Below, piece after piece: positions 13,737 to 24,000 of a stretch of 24,000 bases of DNA. The notes beneath the pieces were generated by a model that made no database searches, was not told the DNA's origin, and worked only from the letters and a program-made list of their open reading frames with translations. Source of the DNA: Aquirufa salirivi. GTDB taxonomy: Bacteria; Bacteroidota; Bacteroidia; Cytophagales; Spirosomataceae. The position numbers and the translations under genes were made by a program. The stretch spans positions 38,785 through 62,784 of the forward strand of contig NZ_JBEWZH010000006.1 in assembly GCF_045310485.1 (NCBI RefSeq), in the 5' to 3' direction. Within the stretch, counting starts at the first letter, position 1, and the number at the start of each line of letters is the position of its first letter.

Positions 13737-13784
13737 TTTGTAAATTATAATTTATAAATTTTTTAGTTTTCGATTTTAGTTATC

Positions 13785-14126
13785 CTACCTTTCTTTGAGA
13801 GTTTTTAATATTCTTGCAATAAGGTAATAGATAGATTTTGCTTCAGCAAATACAGTAGGCTCAACATGTAAATTGATTGATTCTAGCAATTCAAGCCAAT
13901 AAATGGTTTCATTTATTTCTTTTTGTGCAATACTAAGTTTATGAATAAAATCTGCTTTTGATTCAGCATGCTGAGCTTCTCGAACCATTGCTCCAACACT
14001 AGTACCAGACTTTAATAATTGATTTGTCAAAGTATATTCGCGATTTGATTCTTGAATTGCTTTGCAAACCGATATGATGGATTTAGCAAATTCAAATGTT
14101 TTAAATTTTAGGATATTGTTTTTCAT
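13785..14126 (-). CDS. Four-helix-bundle protein (23S rRNA intervening-sequence protein family)
   Basis: 113 aa, all-helical. Family-typical motifs are LTNQLLKSGTSVGAMVREAQHAESKADFIHKLSIAQKEINETIYWLELL. It is transcribed opposite to both neighbours. Confidence 0.75.
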   Translation of the reverse strand: MKNNILKFKTFEFAKSIISVCKAIQESNREYTLTNQLLKSGTSVGAMVREAQHAESKADFIHKLSIAQKEINETIYWLELLESINLHVEPTVFAEAKSIYYLIARILKTLKER

Positions 14127-14339
14127 GTATAATGGTTAGATTTAGTGAATTAAGGTTCAAAATACGTGTCTAATTTAAATGCACAAAAGAATGAAGCGAT
14201 ATTATCAAATGTCTTATATTCATATATGGAAATAAACTTTAATACTAATCAAGTATAAATGACATAAAACGGTCAACCTATATCAGGACAAGACATTTAC
14301 AATTCATCATTTATAATTTATAATTCATAATTCACTCCC

Positions 14340-15385: not shown

Positions 15386-16579
15386 TCATTCTTTTTTAAT
15401 TAATCGTTTTAGTAACAAAAAACTAGAATTTAAAAAACCCGAGAATGAATAAGCATTTGGATAATGATCCATTCGTTTTAATGTTTTAAAATATTTTAGA
15501 TAGACTATTATATGTTTGAAATAAGCGAAATCTTTATCTTGAAATTGGGTTGTTAAATATAAATGTCTTAACGTTAAAGCTCTATTACTACCCCAGTAGG
15601 AGGCTTTTTCCCATTCCTTAACGATTAAATCAATTTTAGAGCAATCAAAGTTATCCAAGTAATTATCTAAAATGGGCGGTAATTTGTAATCTAAATAAGA
15701 TTTCAAGATGGATAAAGCATTTTTGAATGCTGTTGTTAATCTGTAATCATCAACTAGTGATATAACTAATTCCCAATTGATTTTTTTATCATATTGATAC
15801 ATGAATGCATGAAAGTCTTGAATGTGTCTTAGTCTAAACCAAGATTCTTTTCCTCCATGGTGTGCTAATAACATCCAAAATAAGCCTTCTGAATTAAGCT
15901 GTTGAGTTTCAATGCCATTAAATTTCAATTTTTCGGTTAAATCAAATACTCGATCTATTAATGGTTTTTTCTCTTGATACTTTTGATAAAAAAAGTGCTG
16001 AAATAAATCCCAATGAAAATCTAGATTTATGATTCCTTTTTGTAAATGAATTTCATTGTGTAAACTTTGATTGACAATTAACTCTTTTAAATCTTCAGGA
16101 AGAATATTTAGATGGCTAAGATTAGGTGAATTGATTCTGTAACCATCTTGAAGTAAAATTTCTAATCCTTGGATAAGATGTTTTTTTTCAATTAGAACAT
16201 CTAAATCTGAAGTAGTTCGTACTTGTTTGTTTTGATATATCCCTTGAATCAAGATATTTCCCTTTAATACCAATAAGGGAATCTGATGTTCTGAAAATAG
16301 TTTTAAAAGTCGAGTTGTCTCCGCGGCATATTGCAAATTTTTAACAACTTGCTGAGCCATAAATAATTTCACCTCAGTTCGGATGCTCTCAGCCATGAAT
16401 TTTTCCTTTCTTTCATAGGAAAATATAAGCGCTTGAATTCCGTGATAACGATACAATTTTGATAATCTACCCGTATCGTAGGGTAAATCAGTAAAAATAG
16501 GTGCAAATCCTTCCTGTTCAAATTGATTTGTGATTGCCTGGATAAGTATGTCTAATTCGGGGGAAAACTCTTTTTTCAT
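15386..16579 (-). CDS. Nucleotidyltransferase-family protein (PF14907-like), putative lasso-peptide tailoring enzyme
   Basis: About 397 aa. It shows the pattern seen in 'uncharacterised nucleotidyltransferase' proteins: LLVLKGNIL...RTTSDLDVLI...DFHWDL. The start is set to the ATG at 16579, which overlaps the ABC stop in TGATG. Family call is by recollection of the motif pattern. Confidence 0.6.
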   Translation of the reverse strand: MKKEFSPELDILIQAITNQFEQEGFAPIFTDLPYDTGRLSKLYRYHGIQALIFSYERKEKFMAESIRTEVKLFMAQQVVKNLQYAAETTRLLKLFSEHQIPLLVLKGNILIQGIYQNKQVRTTSDLDVLIEKKHLIQGLEILLQDGYRINSPNLSHLNILPEDLKELIVNQSLHNEIHLQKGIINLDFHWDLFQHFFYQKYQEKKPLIDRVFDLTEKLKFNGIETQQLNSEGLFWMLLAHHGGKESWFRLRHIQDFHAFMYQYDKKINWELVISLVDDYRLTTAFKNALSILKSYLDYKLPPILDNYLDNFDCSKIDLIVKEWEKASYWGSNRALTLRHLYLTTQFQDKDFAYFKHIIVYLKYFKTLKRMDHYPNAYSFSGFLNSSFLLLKRLIKKE

Positions 16580-18342
16580 CACACCAGTTGTTGGTCATAT
16601 AGTTGTTTGAATAGGCCATTCTTGTTTTTTAACTCATGAAAGCTTCCCTTTTCTACAATTTTGCCTTCATCCATGACATAGATATAATCAGCTAGTTTTA
16701 GGTTGTAAAGTCGATGTGTAATAATAATGGTCGCTCTATGAGCAGCTATTTTTTTAAAATTTTGAAATATGGTTGCTTCTGAAATGGCATCCAATGCACT
16801 AGTGGGTTCATCTAAGACAATGAGATGAGCTGGTCTATAAAAAGCTCTAGCGATGGCTAATTTCTGCCATTGGCCTCCACTGATCTGTTCGCCACCTGCA
16901 AAAATTTTCCCTAATCTCGTCTCATATGATTGTGGAAGTTGTTGGATGAATTCGTCAGCGTCCGCTAATCGTGCAGCTTCTTGGATTGCCTCCATATCGA
17001 TAGGCTGATCTAAATTGCCCATGGCAATAATTTCTTTGATTTGTAAAAAGTATTTTTCAAAATCTTGAAAGACAAATAGGCTGTTTTGCTTAAATTGGTC
17101 AGCATTTAATTCCTGATAGCGATGACCATTCCAAGTGATTTCACCTTGACTTGGACTATATAATCCAGCTAGTAGTTTGATTAAAGTCGTCTTTCCTGCT
17201 CCATTCATCCCTACAATAGCAATAGTTTGACCTATCTGACAGGTTAGATTAATCTGTTCTAATGTTTTTCGAGTTGATCCTGGATATTGGAAATCTACAT
17301 GCTTAATTTCTAGGCCTTGTCCTGTATTTTCCATTGGTATTGTTCCATGGATAGGTTTATCCCGATCCAATGTGAGGAATTGGTTAAAATCTTGTATGAA
17401 TCGACGCTGTTGGAATAACTGGAGTAATGAATTTAATAGATTTTTTAGGGTACTTTGAATTCTTTGAATACCCTGGATATATACGATGAATAAACTTATA
17501 CCAATGGATTGTGTAAAAGCCATTTGAGCTAGTTCGTACAGAATATAAAACAAGATGGACAATTCAAGTAGTTCTGTCAAAAAACCTAAACTGATTAACT
17601 TCATTTGAAGCGAATTCTTTTTAAGGAAAATGAAGGTTTTTATTTCCTTTAAACGACTTAGAAGATAAGTTCCAAAATTGAGTGTTCGCAATTCTTTGGC
17701 ATAAGCGCTGCCTGTCAGTAAATGTATTAAATAATAAGACTCTCTTTCTTTGCTAACTAATTGTTTATCAAGTCGATGTAAAGCAAAACCTGAATACCAT
17801 TTGATCATGCTTAATGGAGCAGCGACAAATAATATTAACCACGCATAAGTTTTGATAAGGGTAAAAAAATAGAACATTAGTACGGTAAAAGTCAACAATT
17901 GCGTCAAGAATGATTTGAAGTTTTGGTAAATCAAAGGCAGATTTTGTTGTGATTGTTGCTGCGCTATATGTAAGGAGTCTTGATATTGGGCTTCTTCGTA
18001 ATACGTATAGGGTATTGCGATAGCCTTGTTTAAAATTTTATAAACGATTTCATTCGTTATTTTTTGCTCTTGAATAAATGAAATGTAGTTATCTACGTTA
18101 GTTAATAATGATTGAAAAATTTGTAATACAATCAATAGTGCAATCCAAGTTAAAATAGAATTAAAACTAGTCTGAGAAAGGTGGTTAAAATGATCAAATA
18201 TGTTTTTAGTTACAAATAAAAGTGCCGTTGGAATCAAAGCTGAAATCACAGCTATTAGAAACTGGAATAGCGTATTCTTCTTATTTAATCCAAATAATAG
18301 CTTATAAACCAGTAAGAAATCTCGAATGATGTTGAATTTCAA
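16579..18342 (-). CDS. ABC transporter, fused permease/ATPase (lasso peptide exporter, D-type)
   Basis: 587 aa. The N-terminal TM domain is followed by Walker A GMNGAGKTT, signature ISGGQWQK, Walker B LIVLDEPTS and H-loop ITHRL. Only a TTG start (18342) is available; the first in-frame ATG is codon 156. Confidence 0.85.
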   Translation of the reverse strand: MKFNIIRDFLLVYKLLFGLNKKNTLFQFLIAVISALIPTALLFVTKNIFDHFNHLSQTSFNSILTWIALLIVLQIFQSLLTNVDNYISFIQEQKITNEIVYKILNKAIAIPYTYYEEAQYQDSLHIAQQQSQQNLPLIYQNFKSFLTQLLTFTVLMFYFFTLIKTYAWLILFVAAPLSMIKWYSGFALHRLDKQLVSKERESYYLIHLLTGSAYAKELRTLNFGTYLLSRLKEIKTFIFLKKNSLQMKLISLGFLTELLELSILFYILYELAQMAFTQSIGISLFIVYIQGIQRIQSTLKNLLNSLLQLFQQRRFIQDFNQFLTLDRDKPIHGTIPMENTGQGLEIKHVDFQYPGSTRKTLEQINLTCQIGQTIAIVGMNGAGKTTLIKLLAGLYSPSQGEITWNGHRYQELNADQFKQNSLFVFQDFEKYFLQIKEIIAMGNLDQPIDMEAIQEAARLADADEFIQQLPQSYETRLGKIFAGGEQISGGQWQKLAIARAFYRPAHLIVLDEPTSALDAISEATIFQNFKKIAAHRATIIITHRLYNLKLADYIYVMDEGKIVEKGSFHELKNKNGLFKQLYDQQLV

Positions 18343-18366
18343 TAGTGAACAGATTTGTTTGTTTTA

Positions 18367-18374
18367 CAAAGCTA
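18367..18374 (-). promoter_or_regulatory. Candidate -7 box (TAGCTTTG on the minus strand) for the ABC/nucleotidyltransferase operon
   Basis: The reverse complement matches TAnnTTTG, 24 nt upstream of the TTG start at 18342. Confidence 0.3.
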
Positions 18375-18437
18375 TCTTATGTCATTGATTTATCTACAAT
18401 CATGATAGATATTCATTCATATATTTGATATTATCAT

Positions 18438-18445
18438 TAGTTTTG
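18438..18445 (+). promoter_or_regulatory. Candidate -7 box (TAGTTTTG) for the kinase-sulfotransferase-B1-B2 operon
   Basis: Matches TAnnTTTG and ends 22 nt upstream of the ATG at 18468. A second match, TATATTTG, lies at 18420-18427. Confidence 0.3.
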
Positions 18446-18467
18446 TAGAATAAATTTAACCTGTTCC

Positions 18468-19385
18468 ATGTATAAATACGTTGCATTGGGAATGCAAATT
18501 CAATCTGAAATTGAAATTCCAGGCTTGTTTCCTTTTGACTTCCAAGAAAGTGGGGACACCGTTATTGTCAAAATAGGTACTGTACCAGAGACTCTTCAAA
18601 ATGAAATATTAGAAGTAAAGCCTTTTTCTTTCTTCAACGAGCGTGAGTTTATATTTCATATTCCAGAGGCAGCAAAATTTTATATTACGAATGGGAATAA
18701 AATACTAATAGAGCCATTAACGGATAATTTGGATGAAGTGTTTTTTTATCTATACACTGGTGTATTGGCTACTGTATTATTTCAAAAAAATATACTTCCT
18801 TTTCATGTTTCAGGTGTAGTTCTTAAAAACAACACAGTTTTGCTTTTTGCAGGACACCAGAGAGCAGGGAAGTCTTCTACTTCTATCATGCTTCAAAATA
18901 GAGGTTATTTGCCATTTACAGATGATACGGCTGTATTACAAGTTAAAAATGGACTTTGTTATGCAACTTCCTCATACCCGATTATTCGGGCAATGGAACG
19001 AACTTTAGAGAAGCAATCGGTCTATTCAGATGACGAAATAACGCCGAAAATTAAAGAAGGCTTTAAGTTTGGAATAAATTTTCATAAAAAGTTTACTCCT
19101 GAGCAGTTACCCGTTAGTGGTATCGTTTTTTTAAGTGAAGATGGGGATGAGGTGGAGATTTCGCCAATGAAATCAACAGAAGCCATTAAATTGTTAAAGT
19201 TTAATATTTACAGAAAACAGTGGGTCAATGGTATGAAAAAAGAACTTCTTGAATTTCAGACGATTTCACAAATTGCTCAGAGTAAATTACATTTTTTTTC
19301 AGTTAAGCGCCCTTGGGAATCCGATAGTTTTGAGATTTTAGCACAAGCCATAGAAGATCAAGTCATTCATCAAATTGGAAAATAA
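18468..19385 (+). CDS. HPr kinase-like (HprK-related) peptide kinase
   Basis: 305 aa. The HprK C-terminal-domain pattern is HVSGVVLKNNTVLLFAGHQRAGKSSTSIMLQNRGYLPFTDDTAVL, comprising a P-loop GxxxxGKS and a downstream DD. It is adjacent to lasso B1/B2 genes, as in paeninodin-type clusters. Confidence 0.72.
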   Translation: MYKYVALGMQIQSEIEIPGLFPFDFQESGDTVIVKIGTVPETLQNEILEVKPFSFFNEREFIFHIPEAAKFYITNGNKILIEPLTDNLDEVFFYLYTGVLATVLFQKNILPFHVSGVVLKNNTVLLFAGHQRAGKSSTSIMLQNRGYLPFTDDTAVLQVKNGLCYATSSYPIIRAMERTLEKQSVYSDDEITPKIKEGFKFGINFHKKFTPEQLPVSGIVFLSEDGDEVEISPMKSTEAIKLLKFNIYRKQWVNGMKKELLEFQTISQIAQSKLHFFSVKRPWESDSFEILAQAIEDQVIHQIGK

Positions 19386-20226
19386 AAAGAATATAGTTTG
19401 GCTTGCTTCTTATCCTAAATCTGGGAATACTTGGTTTAGGAGCTTTATTTCAGCACTTAGAAATAAAGGAGAAGTCGATATCAATGCTATTTCTACTGAA
19501 GGGATATTTTCTCAAAAAAGAGGGTTGGAAGAATGTTTGGATTTGGATGCAGATGAAATACCTGTGTCTAAAATGGATCAATTTAAGCGCATATCTTTTG
19601 TGCACCAATCAAATACTTCTGCCAAGAAGTGTTTTGTGAAAATCCATGATTTGTATTCCATGTCAAAAATTGACCATCAACCTATTGTACCAGAAGAGTC
19701 TACATTGGCTGCTATCTACTTTGTGAGAAATCCGCTGGATGTAACTATTTCAATGGCAAATCATAATGGACAAACCTTGGATGAGACCATTGCCAAAGTG
19801 GTGTGTAATGAACATGCAAATTTGGTTCGATCAGAAAAACATGCGCAAGATCAGTTTCAGCAATATTTAGGCACATGGAATATGCATGTGGAAAGTTGGA
19901 AAAAGGTCACAGCTTTTCCCGTAATTTTTATTCGATATGAAGACATGAAAAAGAATCCCCAAGATTCATTTTCACAAGCTCTGAAACAGATTGAATATGA
20001 GGCAACTGAAGAAGAAATACAATTAGCTTTAGAAGCTTCCCAATTTGAAAAATTAAAAAATCAAGAAGTTGAGTTTGGATTTAGAGAAAAACCAAAAGCC
20101 TGTAAGTCATTTTTTAATAAAGGAGAGGTTGGTCAATGGAAAGAGCAATTAAATCAAGTACAAATCAATAAAATAAGACAATTTAATGAACCTATGATGC
20201 GAGAATTCGGATATTGGGAAGAATAA
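19375..20226 (+). CDS. PAPS-dependent sulfotransferase (cytosolic SULT-like fold)
   Basis: 283 aa. It has a 5'-phosphosulfate-binding loop SYPKSGNTW, a RNPLDV...H segment and a 3'-phosphate-binding motif FNKGEVGQWKEQL. A TTG start at 19375 is forced, because the PSB loop begins at residue 12 and the first ATG is codon 67. It overlaps the kinase gene by 11 nt. Confidence 0.8.
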   Translation: MENKKNIVWLASYPKSGNTWFRSFISALRNKGEVDINAISTEGIFSQKRGLEECLDLDADEIPVSKMDQFKRISFVHQSNTSAKKCFVKIHDLYSMSKIDHQPIVPEESTLAAIYFVRNPLDVTISMANHNGQTLDETIAKVVCNEHANLVRSEKHAQDQFQQYLGTWNMHVESWKKVTAFPVIFIRYEDMKKNPQDSFSQALKQIEYEATEEEIQLALEASQFEKLKNQEVEFGFREKPKACKSFFNKGEVGQWKEQLNQVQINKIRQFNEPMMREFGYWEE

Positions 20227-20231
20227 TAAAT

Positions 20232-20522
20232 ATGGAAAATATGGAAAACATGACATACGTTTTTAATGAAGAAAGAGTATTATTAACCCAATTAGGAGAA
20301 GAAGGAGTTTTATATGATATTCAATCCAATGAATATTTTACCTTAAATGAAACCTTGTTTTATATCGTAGATGGGATTAAAAAGGGACTAACTTTGGTAG
20401 AAATCGGCGAAATATTAATGAGCAAATACGATATCGATGAGAATTTGTGTTATCAAGAAATAGCCAAAGCTATCCAACAATTGGTAGAAAAAAATATCCT
20501 ATTAGAACAAAATAATGCTTAG
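20232..20522 (+). CDS. PqqD-family RiPP recognition element (lasso B1)
   Basis: About 96 aa with the PqqD pattern: EEGVLYDIQSNEYFTLNETLFYIVDGIKKGLTLVEIGEILMSKYDIDEN...QQLVEKNILLE. The start is set to the ATG at 20232 (the track used TTG at 20214). Its end overlaps the B2 start by 8 nt. Confidence 0.72.
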   Translation: MENMENMTYVFNEERVLLTQLGEEGVLYDIQSNEYFTLNETLFYIVDGIKKGLTLVEIGEILMSKYDIDENLCYQEIAKAIQQLVEKNILLEQNNA

Positions 20523-20940
20523 GGTAATTAGTCTTTTTTTAAAATTAAGTTTTCGTAACCAGAGTCTTATTTTGGGGACAATCATCCTATCTGTTTATTG
20601 TTATTTTTTATTTAAAATAAAGCCGACCTGGATTAGATTTGGCCGGATTCACCAAGTTAAATTGGAAACGGGAAAAATTGATTGGAGACTAGTTAAGGAT
20701 ATTCGGGAGTCAATTCGATTAGTAAGTAAAAGATTACCTCTTCATTTAGTTTGTCGCCATGAAGCTTACATTGCTAAAATATGGTTGAATTATTATAAAA
20801 TCCCCTACAAGATTTATATTGGATTCAAATATGGGGATGATAAAAGCATTCTGGGACATGCTTGGACAGAAGTGCAAGGCAGACAAATCACGGGGTTTTG
20901 TGATCCCCAGGATTATGTGATTCAGGCTATATATACTTGA
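20515..20940 (+). CDS. Lasso peptide leader peptidase B2 (transglutaminase-like Cys protease)
   Basis: 141 aa. The candidate catalytic Cys is in LVCRHEAYIAKIWL, the His in GHAWTEV, and a downstream Asp in CDPQD. The size and motif order match split-B lasso proteases. Confidence 0.75.
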   Translation: MLRVISLFLKLSFRNQSLILGTIILSVYCYFLFKIKPTWIRFGRIHQVKLETGKIDWRLVKDIRESIRLVSKRLPLHLVCRHEAYIAKIWLNYYKIPYKIYIGFKYGDDKSILGHAWTEVQGRQITGFCDPQDYVIQAIYT

Positions 20941-20961
20941 AATAGGAGTTTAGAGATTGAA

Positions 20962-20986
20962 CATTGATTTCAATAATAAATCAATG
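20962..20986. terminator. Weak AT-rich hairpin between the convergent B2 gene and the 50-aa ORF
   Basis: 9-bp stem CATTGATTT / AAATCAATG with a 7-nt loop. There is no clear T-tract on either strand. Confidence 0.25.
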
Positions 20987-20991
20987 ATTCA

Positions 20992-21144
20992 TTAGTAACC
21001 CAACATATGATCAGAATCAAGTAAGAATTTGAGTGGATTCAAATCGATTATTTCTTCGGTATTCCACTTTTCTAATTTAGGACTTTCCCATTTTTTGAGA
21101 TCGGGAGAATTCGTGTCATCATTCAATAATACTTTCTTCTTCAT
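20992..21144 (-). CDS. Unannotated 50-aa ORF with a lasso-leader-like motif (candidate second precursor or leader-bearing peptide)
   Basis: Hand translation: MKKKVLLNDDTNSPDLKKWESPKLEKWNTEEIIDLNPLKFLLDSDHMLGY. ATG at 21144-21142 and TAA at 20994-20992. WESPKL fits the Y/WxxPxL RRE-recognition motif. The motif spacing is shared with the ORF at 23844-24000. It lies 67 nt downstream of the SET gene on the same strand. It is too short for the supplied ORF track. Confidence 0.4.
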   Translation of the reverse strand: MKKKVLLNDDTNSPDLKKWESPKLEKWNTEEIIDLNPLKFLLDSDHMLGY

Positions 21145-21211
21145 TTTTCAATTGTTAGAGCTACATGGGGAAATGAAATAATAAATTATCTAACTTCTAT
21201 ATAATGTACAT

Positions 21212-21712
21212 TTATTTGTATTTCAATGGACTTATTTTTTTCATTAGATTTCTGTAAAGCCAATAGTTTTCTCCATAAGAAACAAAAATTTCTTCATTTG
21301 GGGGGATATCATCTCTTGCAATAATGGTCATAGTTTCTAGACGAAAATCAAGCTTTTGTATCGTGTTGGGTTTATTAGCATGGTTGTATAATGAACCATT
21401 CCCCAACGCTAAATAAACTTTGTTTCCATGTGTATTACATACTTCGCACTTGCAACTTTGATTAGCCCAAATGTAATCTAACATGGTAGGTTCCGATAAA
21501 TAGAATGAGCGCCATTTTAAAGCCAATAGTCTGGCTTCTTCAATTAACTCCCCTTGTTTGATTAGTTCATTGGAAAAAACACCAAATCCATGAATTGAAG
21601 ATTGACTTAATCTAATTTTAGATGATATACCAGCTATATCATATTTAGGTTCAGAAATTTCACAAGGATTTAACACGGTAAATATTTTTTGTTTGAAGTA
21701 ATAAATATACAA
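21212..21712 (-). CDS. SET-domain protein (putative lysine N-methyltransferase)
   Basis: SET motifs appear in order: GFGVFS (GxG), NHANKPN (NHxxxPN) and EEIFVSYGENYW (ExxxxY). There is a Cys-rich insert, CKCEVC. No ATG start is available: the options are TTG at 21712 or GTG at 21676, and the first ATG is codon 77. It lies 34 nt downstream of the cyclase stop. Confidence 0.7.
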   Translation of the reverse strand: MYIYYFKQKIFTVLNPCEISEPKYDIAGISSKIRLSQSSIHGFGVFSNELIKQGELIEEARLLALKWRSFYLSEPTMLDYIWANQSCKCEVCNTHGNKVYLALGNGSLYNHANKPNTIQKLDFRLETMTIIARDDIPPNEEIFVSYGENYWLYRNLMKKISPLKYK

Positions 21713-21746
21713 AAAATGAACTTTCTTTATTCAATACAAAAATCGC

Positions 21747-23630
21747 CTAAACAAATTTGTTTGGGTGAGATTGGATAAATAGCGCACAACTTATTGACCT
21801 TGTTAGATAAATGGAGTTATTGTATGCATTTTTGTTTCTAGGATCTTTAATGATGCTAGCAAGGCTATCTTTCATTTTTTGAATATCCAGATAATAGGTA
21901 ATCGCCTTATTTTGATCGAAAGACTCTAATAATTGTTCAAACTCTTTTGCTTCATTTGCGATTCTAAGCGAAAGATCAGTAGCCTGTCTACCTTTCTTTT
22001 TTTGGTGAATTAAATCATCTAACAATCTACCTTTCATGGCTGTTTTTATTAACCACTTTGGTGTGTCATATCGGTAATAGTATTCGTTGGGAACTGATAG
22101 GCAAAATTCTACTAAATTTTTATCGGCACTCGGATCAAAGGTTTTGATATCAAAATAGTAGGAAAGGTCATGCCATACGGCTCCAATTTTACTGAATTGA
22201 GGATTAATAAATTGAATTTGTTTTTTTTCATTTGGAACTAATTGACGAAAATAGGGATCATGGCCAGATTCCAACATCCTTTTTTCTAAATCAATATCTT
22301 CAGCAAATTTGGAGTTTATGTGAGAATAAGAATCCCAAATTTTGGATTGATCAATACCCATGTATTTTTTAAATTTTTGGGACATGAGCCCAATGTAAGA
22401 GGATATTGTTAGCTTTTCATTGCTATCAAAGCCAATAAGTTGTTTAATTTTTTCTTTGACGGAATTTTTTTCTGTATAACCCGTCCAAGAAATAGTTGAG
22501 TTTCCAAATTGACCTATCAACATGGTGTCAATTCCCTCTTTTCCGGCATTTCGATAAATTTCATAGATCCAAAAAAGATTTCCTGCTGCATGCAAAGGGC
22601 TATGATGCAGATCAGTCATCTCTTTGAGATTTTGAACAATGGAAACCTGCTCACTCCGAATTAATTGTAAATCTACATTACCTAAAAATTGAGCAGTTGG
22701 TATGGTTAGGTATGATTCATTGGTGGCAGTTAGTGGATTAAATAAATCAGAAGTATCCTCTTTTGGAATGGATGTAAATGCTGTTAAAGACTTTCCTTCT
22801 TTTTTTAAGATTTCAGATGCTACCGTGGTGATGGTACTGGAATCAAATCCTGAACTTAATTGGCTTCCGATTTTATTTGCTCCTTGTATTCTATTTCTTA
22901 CCGACTGTTCCAATTTTGCATTAAAGCGAGTCACATATTCCATTTCAGTATTCAGCTGTAGTACAGGAGTGTTTTCAGCTATCCAATATCTTTTGAACTC
23001 AGTTTTGCCATTAATAATTTTTAAGTAATGCGCAGGAAGTAAAAAATGAATGTCTTCAAAGGCTGTTTCATCATTTAATCTATCCCAAACTGTCAAAATG
23101 CCAGCTATATAGCTTTCGTTAATTTTTAGATGGCTTTTGTCAAAATCAAGAAGTCCTTTAAGTAAAGAAGAGAAAGCTATATAATCATGTCCTTTTCTAT
23201 AATAGATCGTACCAATTCCAAATGGATCTCTGGCAAGGAATAATTCTTTAGAATTACCATTCCAAATAACTAAAGTCCATTCACCGTCAATTTTTTTTAC
23301 AAAATCATCTCCTAGCAATAAATATAATTTTAGGAGAAGTATGTTGTTAGGAATAGACTCATCTATTTTCATTGACAAAAGGGTAAATAAGTCCTTTCGG
23401 TTGTCAATTCGACCAGTGGAAATAATCTGGCAATTATTTTCTGAGTATAGTAATTCTTGAGCTTGAAATTCTGTATGGAGAGATCTGGTTTGTACACCAA
23501 TGTGACTACCATGGTCTACTGAATCTGATATTAGGCTAGGGGCAAATTCACTTAAGGAATTTTGTATGATGGGAAATAGATCAGAATTAGTATCTGGGTC
23601 AAATGATACTAAACCGTACAAAATATTCAT
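21747..23630 (-). CDS. Lasso peptide macrolactam synthetase (asparagine synthetase B-like, C protein)
   Basis: 627 aa. It has an AsnB-like two-domain layout but the N-terminus MNILYG lacks the Cys2 glutaminase nucleophile. It carries a PP-loop variant, SSGFDSS. It is clustered with B1/B2/ABC genes. Confidence 0.85.
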   Translation of the reverse strand: MNILYGLVSFDPDTNSDLFPIIQNSLSEFAPSLISDSVDHGSHIGVQTRSLHTEFQAQELLYSENNCQIISTGRIDNRKDLFTLLSMKIDESIPNNILLLKLYLLLGDDFVKKIDGEWTLVIWNGNSKELFLARDPFGIGTIYYRKGHDYIAFSSLLKGLLDFDKSHLKINESYIAGILTVWDRLNDETAFEDIHFLLPAHYLKIINGKTEFKRYWIAENTPVLQLNTEMEYVTRFNAKLEQSVRNRIQGANKIGSQLSSGFDSSTITTVASEILKKEGKSLTAFTSIPKEDTSDLFNPLTATNESYLTIPTAQFLGNVDLQLIRSEQVSIVQNLKEMTDLHHSPLHAAGNLFWIYEIYRNAGKEGIDTMLIGQFGNSTISWTGYTEKNSVKEKIKQLIGFDSNEKLTISSYIGLMSQKFKKYMGIDQSKIWDSYSHINSKFAEDIDLEKRMLESGHDPYFRQLVPNEKKQIQFINPQFSKIGAVWHDLSYYFDIKTFDPSADKNLVEFCLSVPNEYYYRYDTPKWLIKTAMKGRLLDDLIHQKKKGRQATDLSLRIANEAKEFEQLLESFDQNKAITYYLDIQKMKDSLASIIKDPRNKNAYNNSIYLTRSISCALFIQSHPNKFV

Positions 23631-23707
23631 TGTGGAAATAGGTTATGGATAAAAAATATCACGTTTGTGTTTGCATGATTCAATACTTGTATCTAGGCAT
23701 ATTTAGC

Positions 23708-23742
23708 AACAATTTACAAGTATTTAATACTTCTAAATTGTT
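23708..23742. promoter_or_regulatory. 35-nt near-perfect palindrome upstream of the cyclase gene
   Basis: AACAATTTAcAAGTATT-T-AATACTTcTAAATTGTT: 16 of 17 arm positions are complementary, centred on 23725. It lies between the stop of the edge ORF (23844) and the cyclase ATG (23630). Confidence 0.4.
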
Positions 23743-23843
23743 TATATTTAATATAATTGAGTACAGATTTGATGTTCTTATGAATGAAACTAATACTATT
23801 TAACTCGATTCAAATGGAGCTAATGCGGGTTAAAAATCCTTTT

Positions 23844-24000
23844 TTATTGGTTATATGTTTTCACGCCACCGTCTACACCAACACCATATTTTAAGCCCAA
23901 ATTGACATATTCCCAAATGATGATTTGAGGGTCTATCCAATTCTTTTTTTCATAGGACAATTGAGAGTCTATTTTATTTGACTGTAGGGTAAAATGTTCA
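23844..24000 (-). CDS. Small or partial ORF ending in a lasso-compatible core (best precursor-peptide candidate); the frame is open to the window edge
   Basis: Hand translation from the window edge: EHFTLQSNKIDSQLSYEKKNWIDPQIIIWEYVNLGLKYGVGVDGGVKTYNQ*. TAA at 23846-23844. No in-frame ATG is visible. An in-frame TTG at 23960-23958 would give a 38-aa peptide. WIDPQI fits the Y/WxxPx(L/I) leader motif, and the core GLKYGVGVDGGVKTYNQ has Gly1 and Asp9. Confidence 0.4.
   Translation of the reverse strand, partial: EHFTLQSNKIDSQLSYEKKNWIDPQIIIWEYVNLGLKYGVGVDGGVKTYNQ

Follow-up and report, generated by a model that had tools for sequence, protein, structure and literature searches.

A sulfotransferase coupled to an HprK-like kinase in an Aquirufa lasso-peptide gene cluster: genomic evidence for a role in peptide tailoring

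The 24,000-nucleotide stretch of DNA analysed here, from the freshwater bacterium Aquirufa salirivi (contig NZ_JBEWZH010000006.1, hereafter the window) holds a lasso-peptide gene cluster at positions 15386–24000, recognized from its list of open reading frames (ORFs) and from Pfam and NCBIfam profile matches. One of its operons begins with a gene for an HprK-like kinase (K) followed by a gene for a sulfotransferase (ST), and the genomic case for ST as a part of the lasso pathway, closely tied to the kinase, is strong: K lies on the same strand directly upstream of ST, beside lasso genes, in about 60 of 82 ST loci. The tailoring role of the pair, and with it the prospect of a sulfo-lasso peptide, is strengthened by these comparisons between genomes. 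As for the chemistry, O-sulfation of tyrosine by ST is the most likely modification of the peptides encoded in the window, with K serving paralogues that carry Ser or Thr, and to this reading we give about an even chance.

The genes of this operon are as follows.

18468–19385, plus strand: K, HprK-like P-loop peptide kinase (predicted) of 305 aa, with GHQRAGKSS at 18852–18878, FTDDTA at 18915–18932 and PFHVSG at 18798–18815
19375–19385, plus strand: 11-nt overlap of the K stop (TAA, 19383–19385) and the ST start (TTG, 19375–19377)
19375–20226, plus strand: ST, cytosolic SULT-type sulfotransferase of 283 aa, predicted to depend on 3′-phosphoadenosine 5′-phosphosulfate (PAPS); PF00685, E = 3.9e-29
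20232–20522, plus strand: B1, PqqD-type recognition element (RRE) for ribosomally synthesized peptides with post-translational modifications (RiPPs); PF05402, E = 4.8e-11, and NF033536; start at ATG 20232 or later
20515–20940, plus strand: B2, transglutaminase-like leader peptidase; PF13471, E = 2.1e-14; NF033537 at 37.2 bits, above cutoff

The kinase and sulfotransferase genes form a conserved pair

A first-pass annotation, made from the window alone, had stated that the kinase and sulfotransferase genes overlap by 11 nt and lead an operon that ends in B1/B2, and both statements hold. Upstream of the PAPS loop of ST, no canonical start other than the TTG at 19375 is present, the K/ST junction caaaTTGgaaaataa is identical in three other Aquirufa genomes (four in total), and more distant ST homologues have an ATG at the equivalent MEN... 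position. Given the shared junction and the ATG of the distant homologues, the ST start, and hence the overlap, is well supported. K, ST, B1 and B2 form one co-directional string with overlaps (8 nt between B1 and B2) or gaps of at most 5 nt, and no terminator-like sites were found inside it. The mechanically derived ORF of B1 begins at a TTG at 20214, in place of which we have taken the ATG at 20232 or a later one.

To place the pair among its relatives, 7556 ST relatives were found at E ≤ 1e-10, and a scan in which each species was represented by one genome gave 567, of which the best 79 loci were kept. Together with two earlier loci and the window, these make up the 82 ST loci, whose gene content was determined by iterative profile searches on all ORFs. 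They span more than ten phyla, including Bacteroidota, several proteobacterial classes, Acidobacteriota, Chloroflexota, Cyanobacteria, Gemmatimonadota, Verrucomicrobiota, Desulfobacterota and others. Of the 82 loci, 78 have K, 66 have B1, 61 have B2, 59 have the macrolactam cyclase gene C, 40 have the PF14907 nucleotidyltransferase gene N, 13 have an adenosine 5′-phosphosulfate (APS) kinase gene and four have a SET-domain gene. Where K and ST adjoin, the stop and start typically overlap by 4, 8, 11 or 13 nt across phyla, or else are separated by a few bases. Fusion proteins of K and ST, sought as evidence of a complex, were not found at any of these loci. From the conserved K-to-ST adjacency beside B1, B2 and C in so many phyla, we conclude that ST and K are probably lasso tailoring enzymes, and that the sulfotransferase, far from being an occasional neighbour, would be the lasso kinase's obligate partner in a widespread family of clusters. 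Since the pairing is so widespread, it implies that the modification would be common, and it can be tested with defined genes and peptides.

Comparison of the window with Aquirufa ecclesiirivi gives ratios of nonsynonymous to synonymous substitution rates (dN/dS) of 0.16 for K and 0.18 for ST, which indicate that both are under purifying selection, although the ratios rest on few substitutions (18–26 per gene). In the 13 loci mentioned above, the APS-kinase genes are no more than 10 kb away from ST, which would fit an enzyme that uses PAPS. In Aquirufa the APS kinase flanks the precursor array and is intact in A. aurantiipilula (L003:10859–11371) and A. nivalisilvae (L004:18331–18819). Adjacency, purifying selection and nearby APS kinases all speak for the earlier proposal that the kinase and sulfotransferase tailor the product of the lasso pathway.

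As a separate observation, two or three HprK-like kinase genes are present in many of the K–ST loci outside Aquirufa (L006, L007, L009, L021, L040, L062, L070, L072, L075 and others), and this may be the counterpart of what NCBIfam models describe as "HprK-related kinase A/B" pairs.

Assignment of the two enzymes

ST matches PF00685 with 102 bits, and its entire length aligns with human SULT1B1 (3ckl, E = 1e-14); further solved relatives are Teg12 (E = 3e-10), StaL (E = 4e-7), a tyrosine-ester sulfotransferase and SULT2. Both PAPS-binding motifs reported in the first pass align with those of SULT1B1 and are invariant in the family. The 5′-phosphosulfate-binding (5′-PSB) motif SYPKSGNTW (19408–19434), with the catalytic Lys, aligns with ATYPKSGTTW, and FNKGEVGQWKEQL (20113–20151) aligns with FMRKGTAGDWKNYF of SULT1B1. 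The catalytic His lies in VKIHD (19636–19650), opposite VKTH; RNPLDVTIS (19726–19752), with the Arg and Ser that bind the 3′-phosphate, stands opposite RNAKDVSVS; and NKGEVGQWK stands opposite RKGTAGDWK, so that the Arg of RKG is replaced by Asn in ST. Among 16 homologues, the 5′-PSB loop, H91, R118, S126, G250, G253 and W255 are invariant. A RaxST/TPST-type assignment was tried and rejected: PF13469, which we take to be the family of RaxST and TPST, matches ST with E = 0.0097 and 16.6 bits against a cutoff of 27. On these profile matches ST is a PF00685 cytosolic SULT-type enzyme with predicted PAPS dependence and not a RaxST-type enzyme. Thus the analogy to RaxX/RaxST drawn in the first-pass annotation fails as a family assignment and holds for the chemistry only. 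Its nearest characterised or solved relatives (SULT1, the tyrosine-ester sulfotransferase, Teg12 and StaL) sulfate phenolic hydroxyls.

It is at this point that one must ask whether ST acts on the lasso peptides at all, or instead off them, on a small molecule, in self-protection or as a decaying passenger. The nearest solved relatives are small-molecule SULTs, and the APS kinase of the A. ecclesiirivi cluster (L083:20254–20523) is a frameshifted remnant without its N-terminal part. But the K-to-ST adjacency by lasso genes is conserved over more than ten phyla, the catalytic residues of ST are all intact and the gene is under purifying selection, and we regard a role away from the lasso peptides as highly improbable.

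The P-loop of K, GHQRAGKSS, comprises residues 129–137, and G134, K135, S136, H113 and D152–D153 are invariant in 22 homologues. A family profile built from these homologues finds HprK/P as its best matches in the PDB (2qmh and 1jb1, E = 3e-4), with GxxGxGKS...DD aligned; the alignment is confined to the P-loop segment. An AlphaFold2 model of K (predicted local distance difference test score, 92.6) has a fold that matches phosphoenolpyruvate (PEP) carboxykinases and HprK/P, which share one P-loop fold. A Pfam scan of K gave no family match, a single-sequence search against PDB sequences gave a chance match only, and TIGR04352 matched with E = 1e-3 and 18 bits, far under its cutoff of 200. With no match to the Hpr_kinase_N/C families of Pfam and TIGR04352 below its cutoff, we rejected K as an HprK/P orthologue proper; by fold and motif it is best described as an HprK-like protein. 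The HprK-like kinase of the first pass is thus confirmed, since its P-loop aligns with the catalytic residues of HprK/P and is invariant in homologues. A misalignment of the P-loop or PAPS motifs with the catalytic residues of their families, named in the first pass as one of the results that would speak against the proposal, was looked for, and in both K and ST the motifs do align.

Precursor peptides and candidate acceptor residues

Two precursor-like peptides are encoded in the window.

20992–21144, minus strand: A2, 50-aa precursor-like peptide from the ORF list, with a WESP leader motif and the end ...DHMLGY
23844–24000, minus strand: A1, class-I precursor, ...KKNWIDPQIIIWEYVNLGLKYGVGVDGGVKTYNQ, with its N-terminus beyond the window end and a 54-aa orthologue in A. 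ecclesiirivi

The A1 peptide as listed (23844–23960) is cut by the window end, and the 54-aa length of its orthologue means that the TTG taken for the "start" encodes a Leu inside the gene. In A. ecclesiirivi the A1 counterpart opens a tandem array of about 15 precursor genes (L083:15368–20874), whose leaders are near-identical and whose cores vary. Past the position of the window end, the A. ecclesiirivi cluster goes on for at least 14 precursor genes more, among them one for a peptide with the end ...KAYVS. Class-I paralogue arrays hold 4 members in A. aurantiipilula, 15 in A. nivalisilvae and about 14–15 in A. ecclesiirivi. What the class-I peptides have in common is a W..P....W leader, an invariant Asp 22–24 residues past the first Trp and a DGGxK(A/T)Yxx tail, which in the A1 of the window reads ...DGGVKTYNQ. 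Both window peptides also have the WxxPx(hydrophobic) leader motif (WIDPQI in A1, WESPKL in A2), the significance of which has been described (PMC13381572).

Neither window peptide ends in Ser, as had been noted in the first pass: A1 ends in ...TYNQ and A2 in ...MLGY, so the C-terminal Ser of paeninodin-like precursors is absent from the window, although the A. ecclesiirivi paralogue past the window end does have it. The sole conserved hydroxyl in the class-I tails is the Tyr of DGGxK(A/T)Yxx. A Tyr, sometimes a Ser, is kept 2–5 residues from the C-terminus in about 30 paralogous Aquirufa precursors; many A. nivalisilvae paralogues have Ser at the Tyr position (...KTSAx), and Ser and Tyr thus interchange, from one Aquirufa species to another, at position −3 of the class-I precursors. 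The same exchange is seen at the very end of A2, whose last codon (within 20992–20997) is TAC for Tyr, and the A. aurantiipilula orthologue (L003:5822–5827), which ends in ...RTLDS, has TCT for Ser. Because Ser and Tyr are exchanged at two independent places, this suggests that the feature being kept is the hydroxyl group. Aquirufa is therefore a good test case, in which the Ser-to-Tyr swap of the acceptor separates the capability of the kinase from that of the sulfotransferase.

Outside Aquirufa, we took as convincing precursor candidates those intergenic small ORFs that have a basic residue followed by [WY]xxP, which gave 73 peptides. Of these, 55 end in Ser, a residue that makes up only 9% of the core residues, and in 23 of the 55 the predicted core has no Tyr. 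In the cluster of Emticicia oligotrophica DSM 17448, with the gene order K-ST-A-B1-B2-N, both precursors (A) end in Ser and lack any Tyr. On this pattern, the family-wide conserved acceptor would be the C-terminal Ser. Since this C-terminal-Ser rule marks a peptide-kinase activity and holds across the K–ST loci, K as a substitute for APS kinase that supplies PAPS was rejected.

The same pattern raises the question of whether ST is a Ser/Thr O-sulfotransferase for an acceptor of the C-terminal Ser type, the Aquirufa Tyr being a steric plug only. The window peptides would then be poor substrates or non-substrates, and the real substrates would be Ser-bearing paralogues past the window end, such as the A. 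ecclesiirivi peptide in ...KAYVS; the Ser of the A. nivalisilvae paralogues at the Tyr position, the near-universal C-terminal Ser, the many cores that lack Tyr and the existence of alcohol sulfotransferases in the SULT family (ST has SULT2 matches) would all be in keeping with this. On the other side, K and ST would have to compete for one oxygen, and Tyr is kept in nearly all A. ecclesiirivi paralogues and stands at the exact C-terminus of A2. We consider this account unlikely. The first-pass suggestion of Tyr as the acceptor thus fares differently at the two levels: O-sulfation of Tyr is plausible in Aquirufa, with its near-C-terminal Tyr in about 30 precursors and the Tyr/Ser swap of A2, but it does not extend to the family as a whole, where Ser prevails and where Tyr-free cores at 16 of 45 loci indicate that Tyr is not the general (ancestral) acceptor.

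Comparison with known systems

The cluster has the gene content of paeninodin-like clusters, namely the cyclase C, the split B1/B2, an HprK-like kinase and the WxxP leader. It shares with the paeninodin-type clusters (PadeK, ThcoK and SyanK, from Zhu et al. 2016, via PMC8498205) the split B1/B2, C, an ATP-binding cassette (ABC) exporter, an HprK-like kinase and the WxxP leader, and the relatives of the Aquirufa cluster have precursors that end in Ser, the known target of paeninodin-type kinases (PMC8498205). Unlike these systems, Aquirufa has a SULT-type sulfotransferase coupled to the kinase, a SET gene, a large precursor array and, in the relatives, an APS kinase, and its window precursors do not end in Ser. 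The assumption, implicit in the first-pass annotation, of a C-terminal Ser as the sole target of lasso kinases is outdated: BsfK of Bradymonas sediminis (PMC10368454) and LppK (PMC13381572) phosphorylate Ser3 and reject Tyr. These two are likewise HprK-like RiPP kinases, with a target other than the C-terminal Ser, and with non-Thr residues at leader position −2, but their systems lack a sulfotransferase.

The pseudomycoidin cluster (PsmK/PsmN; Zyubko et al. 2019, via PMC8498205) also combines a kinase with a PF14907-type nucleotidyltransferase, which decorates the phosphate on Ser (PMC8498205). It has no sulfotransferase, whereas in the window N belongs to a separate, divergent exporter operon and the visible peptides have no Ser acceptor.

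Among sulfotransferases, SULT1, Teg12, Teg14 and StaL belong to PF00685 as ST does, with the 5′-PSB, catalytic His and 3′-phosphate-binding (3′-PB) motifs aligned, and they O-sulfate phenolic hydroxyls with PAPS. Their substrates are small phenols or non-ribosomal glycopeptides and, unlike ST, they have no link to an RRE or a kinase. RaxX/RaxST and SslST (PMC11143521) provide examples of bacterial RiPPs with Tyr-O-sulfate derived from PAPS, neither of them in a lasso pathway; SslST forms a separate clade and requires a lanthionine ring, and the few bacterial RiPPs for which sulfation has been shown comprise RaxX, some methanobactins and two lanthipeptides (PMC11143521). That lasso clusters of Firmicutes and anaerobes can hold an HPr-kinase homologue together with a sulfotransferase and a nucleotidyltransferase was noted in 2014 and 2016, with the role of the sulfotransferase left open (PMC8498205), and a June 2026 review does not include sulfation in its list of lasso modifications. 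No report of a sulfated lasso peptide was found in the literature searched, in line with the first-pass remark that sulfation had yet to be demonstrated for this class.

A proposed pathway and the case against it

In the pathway that we propose, K and ST would act as a co-translated tailoring module, made from one message, in a paeninodin-like lasso cluster. B1 would bind the WxxP leader and probably present the precursors to K and ST; in other systems, BsfB1 stimulates BsfK (PMC10368454), and processing of linear polyphosphorylated peptides depends on the RRE LppB (PMC13381572). K and ST would each place an anionic group on a hydroxyl residue, presumably the one at or near the C-terminus. B2 would then cleave the leader, C would close the macrolactam on the invariant Asp of DGG and D, the exporter, would release the product, this order of reactions being the one we favour. 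In the window the acceptor would be Tyr, that of ...KTYNQ in A1 and the C-terminal residue in A2, and ST would convert it to Tyr-O-sulfate, with K probably acting on Ser- or Thr-bearing paralogues. Because the known lasso kinases reject Tyr and the nearest ST relatives sulfate phenols, ST is the likeliest of the two to modify the window peptides. A sulfate charge on the threaded tail could serve as a steric lock or alter target binding.

A different division of labour is suggested by the fact that each precursor has one conserved hydroxyl, yet two translationally coupled group-transfer enzymes are kept. K might phosphorylate this single hydroxyl and ST, with or without N, might decorate the phosphate, with either a phosphosulfate or a sulfated phosphoglycan as the product. 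The window encodes N, which is found at 40 of the 82 loci, and decoration of a phosphate has a precedent in PsmN, which adds hexose to phospho-Ser in pseudomycoidin (PMC8498205). Nevertheless, about half of the loci lack N, which excludes a glycan as the general acceptor; Tyr is not phosphorylated by known lasso kinases, and on the window peptides the reaction would thus fail at the outset; and K–ST fusions are lacking. Also, we know of no SULT-family enzyme that moves sulfate onto a phosphate oxygen. Decoration of the phosphate is thus, in our view, unlikely. In its more specific form, K followed by ST on one tail hydroxyl would yield a phosphosulfate on the peptide, with the sulfo-phospho mixed anhydride known from APS and PAPS, or else a sulfated group linked through phosphate, and this we hold to be very unlikely; if true, it would explain why K and ST are coupled in more than ten phyla despite a single conserved acceptor.

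Several observations weigh against Tyr-O-sulfation of lasso peptides as we have proposed it. Across the ST family, the C-terminal Ser is the sole universal feature of the precursors, and no core has a Tyr at 16 of 45 loci, Emticicia included. The boundary between leader and core could not be fixed: spacings of −14, −15 and −16 from the leader Trp were tried and none fits all paralogues, nor does any single register give Gly, Ala or Ser at position 1 with a ring of 7–9 in all of them, so that the ring size is left at 7–9. A2 has no canonical Asp or Glu at core position 7–9 in any consistent register, and A2-type peptides may not be lasso substrates at all, being instead linear kinase substrates by analogy with the linear polyphosphorylated peptides (PMC13381572). 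The conserved Lys and Tyr of the tails could simply be steric plugs of the lasso. Finally, the small number of substitutions behind the dN/dS ratios and the decayed APS kinase of A. ecclesiirivi tell on the same side.

Organization of the rest of the cluster

The remaining features of the cluster are as follows.

15386–16582, minus strand: N, PF14907 nucleotidyltransferase (E = 1.1e-40), second gene of the D–N operon
16579–18342, minus strand: D, ABC exporter with MsbA-like permease/ATPase; PF00005, E = 6e-30, PF00664 and MsbA-like NCBIfam matches
18343–18467, no strand: divergent intergenic region between D and K, the probable site of the promoters of both operons, with three TAnnTTTG matches (18367, minus; 18420, plus; 18438, plus)
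21212–21712, minus strand: SET-domain methyltransferase within the C–SET–A2 operon; PF00856, E = 7e-12; likely start at 21676, which matches the 154-aa orthologue in A. ecclesiirivi
21747–23630, minus strand: C, lasso macrolactam cyclase, Asn-synthase-like; NF033535, E = 5.4e-66, PF00733 and PF13537

The minus-strand A1/C/SET/A2 operon converges on the K-ST-B1-B2 operon, and a gap of 125 bp separates the latter from the minus-strand D–N operon. The first-pass annotation was right about the PF14907 family of the nucleotidyltransferase, but it had called the gene convergent, and N is transcribed divergently from K. TAnnTTTG, the Bacteroidota −7 motif, is not enriched over the window, so its matches between D and K are a weak hint only, and scans of the window for sigma-70 promoters and terminators were uninformative, with counts no higher than in shuffled sequences. 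At two Chloroflexota loci (L032:11065–12948 and L071:11148–12881), B2 and the PF14907 nucleotidyltransferase are fused in one ORF, and such fusions are mentioned in the literature (PMC8498205).

The SET gene lies between C and A2, with its motifs YNHANKPN and FVSYGENYW intact, and it is also found in the K–ST lasso clusters of three other Aquirufa genomes and, directly after ST and with 46% identity, in that of Sediminibacterium ginsengisoli. The conserved Lys of the DGGxKxY tails is a candidate substrate for this enzyme. In the literature searched, no link between SET domains and lasso clusters was found.

The window DNA is about 94.5% identical to that of A. ecclesiirivi GCA_011250515.1 (Bacteroidota, Cytophagales), with flanking genes identical in kind, and the G+C content of the cluster (0.31–0.35) is below that of the housekeeping genes to its left. 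The segment at 13739–14293, which contains a 113-aa ORF (13785–14126, minus strand), has no alignment with the A. ecclesiirivi contig, which is collinear elsewhere and carries in its place a PF05635 gene (23S rRNA intervening-sequence protein, IVP). From the alignment, this segment immediately to the left of the cluster appears to vary between strains.

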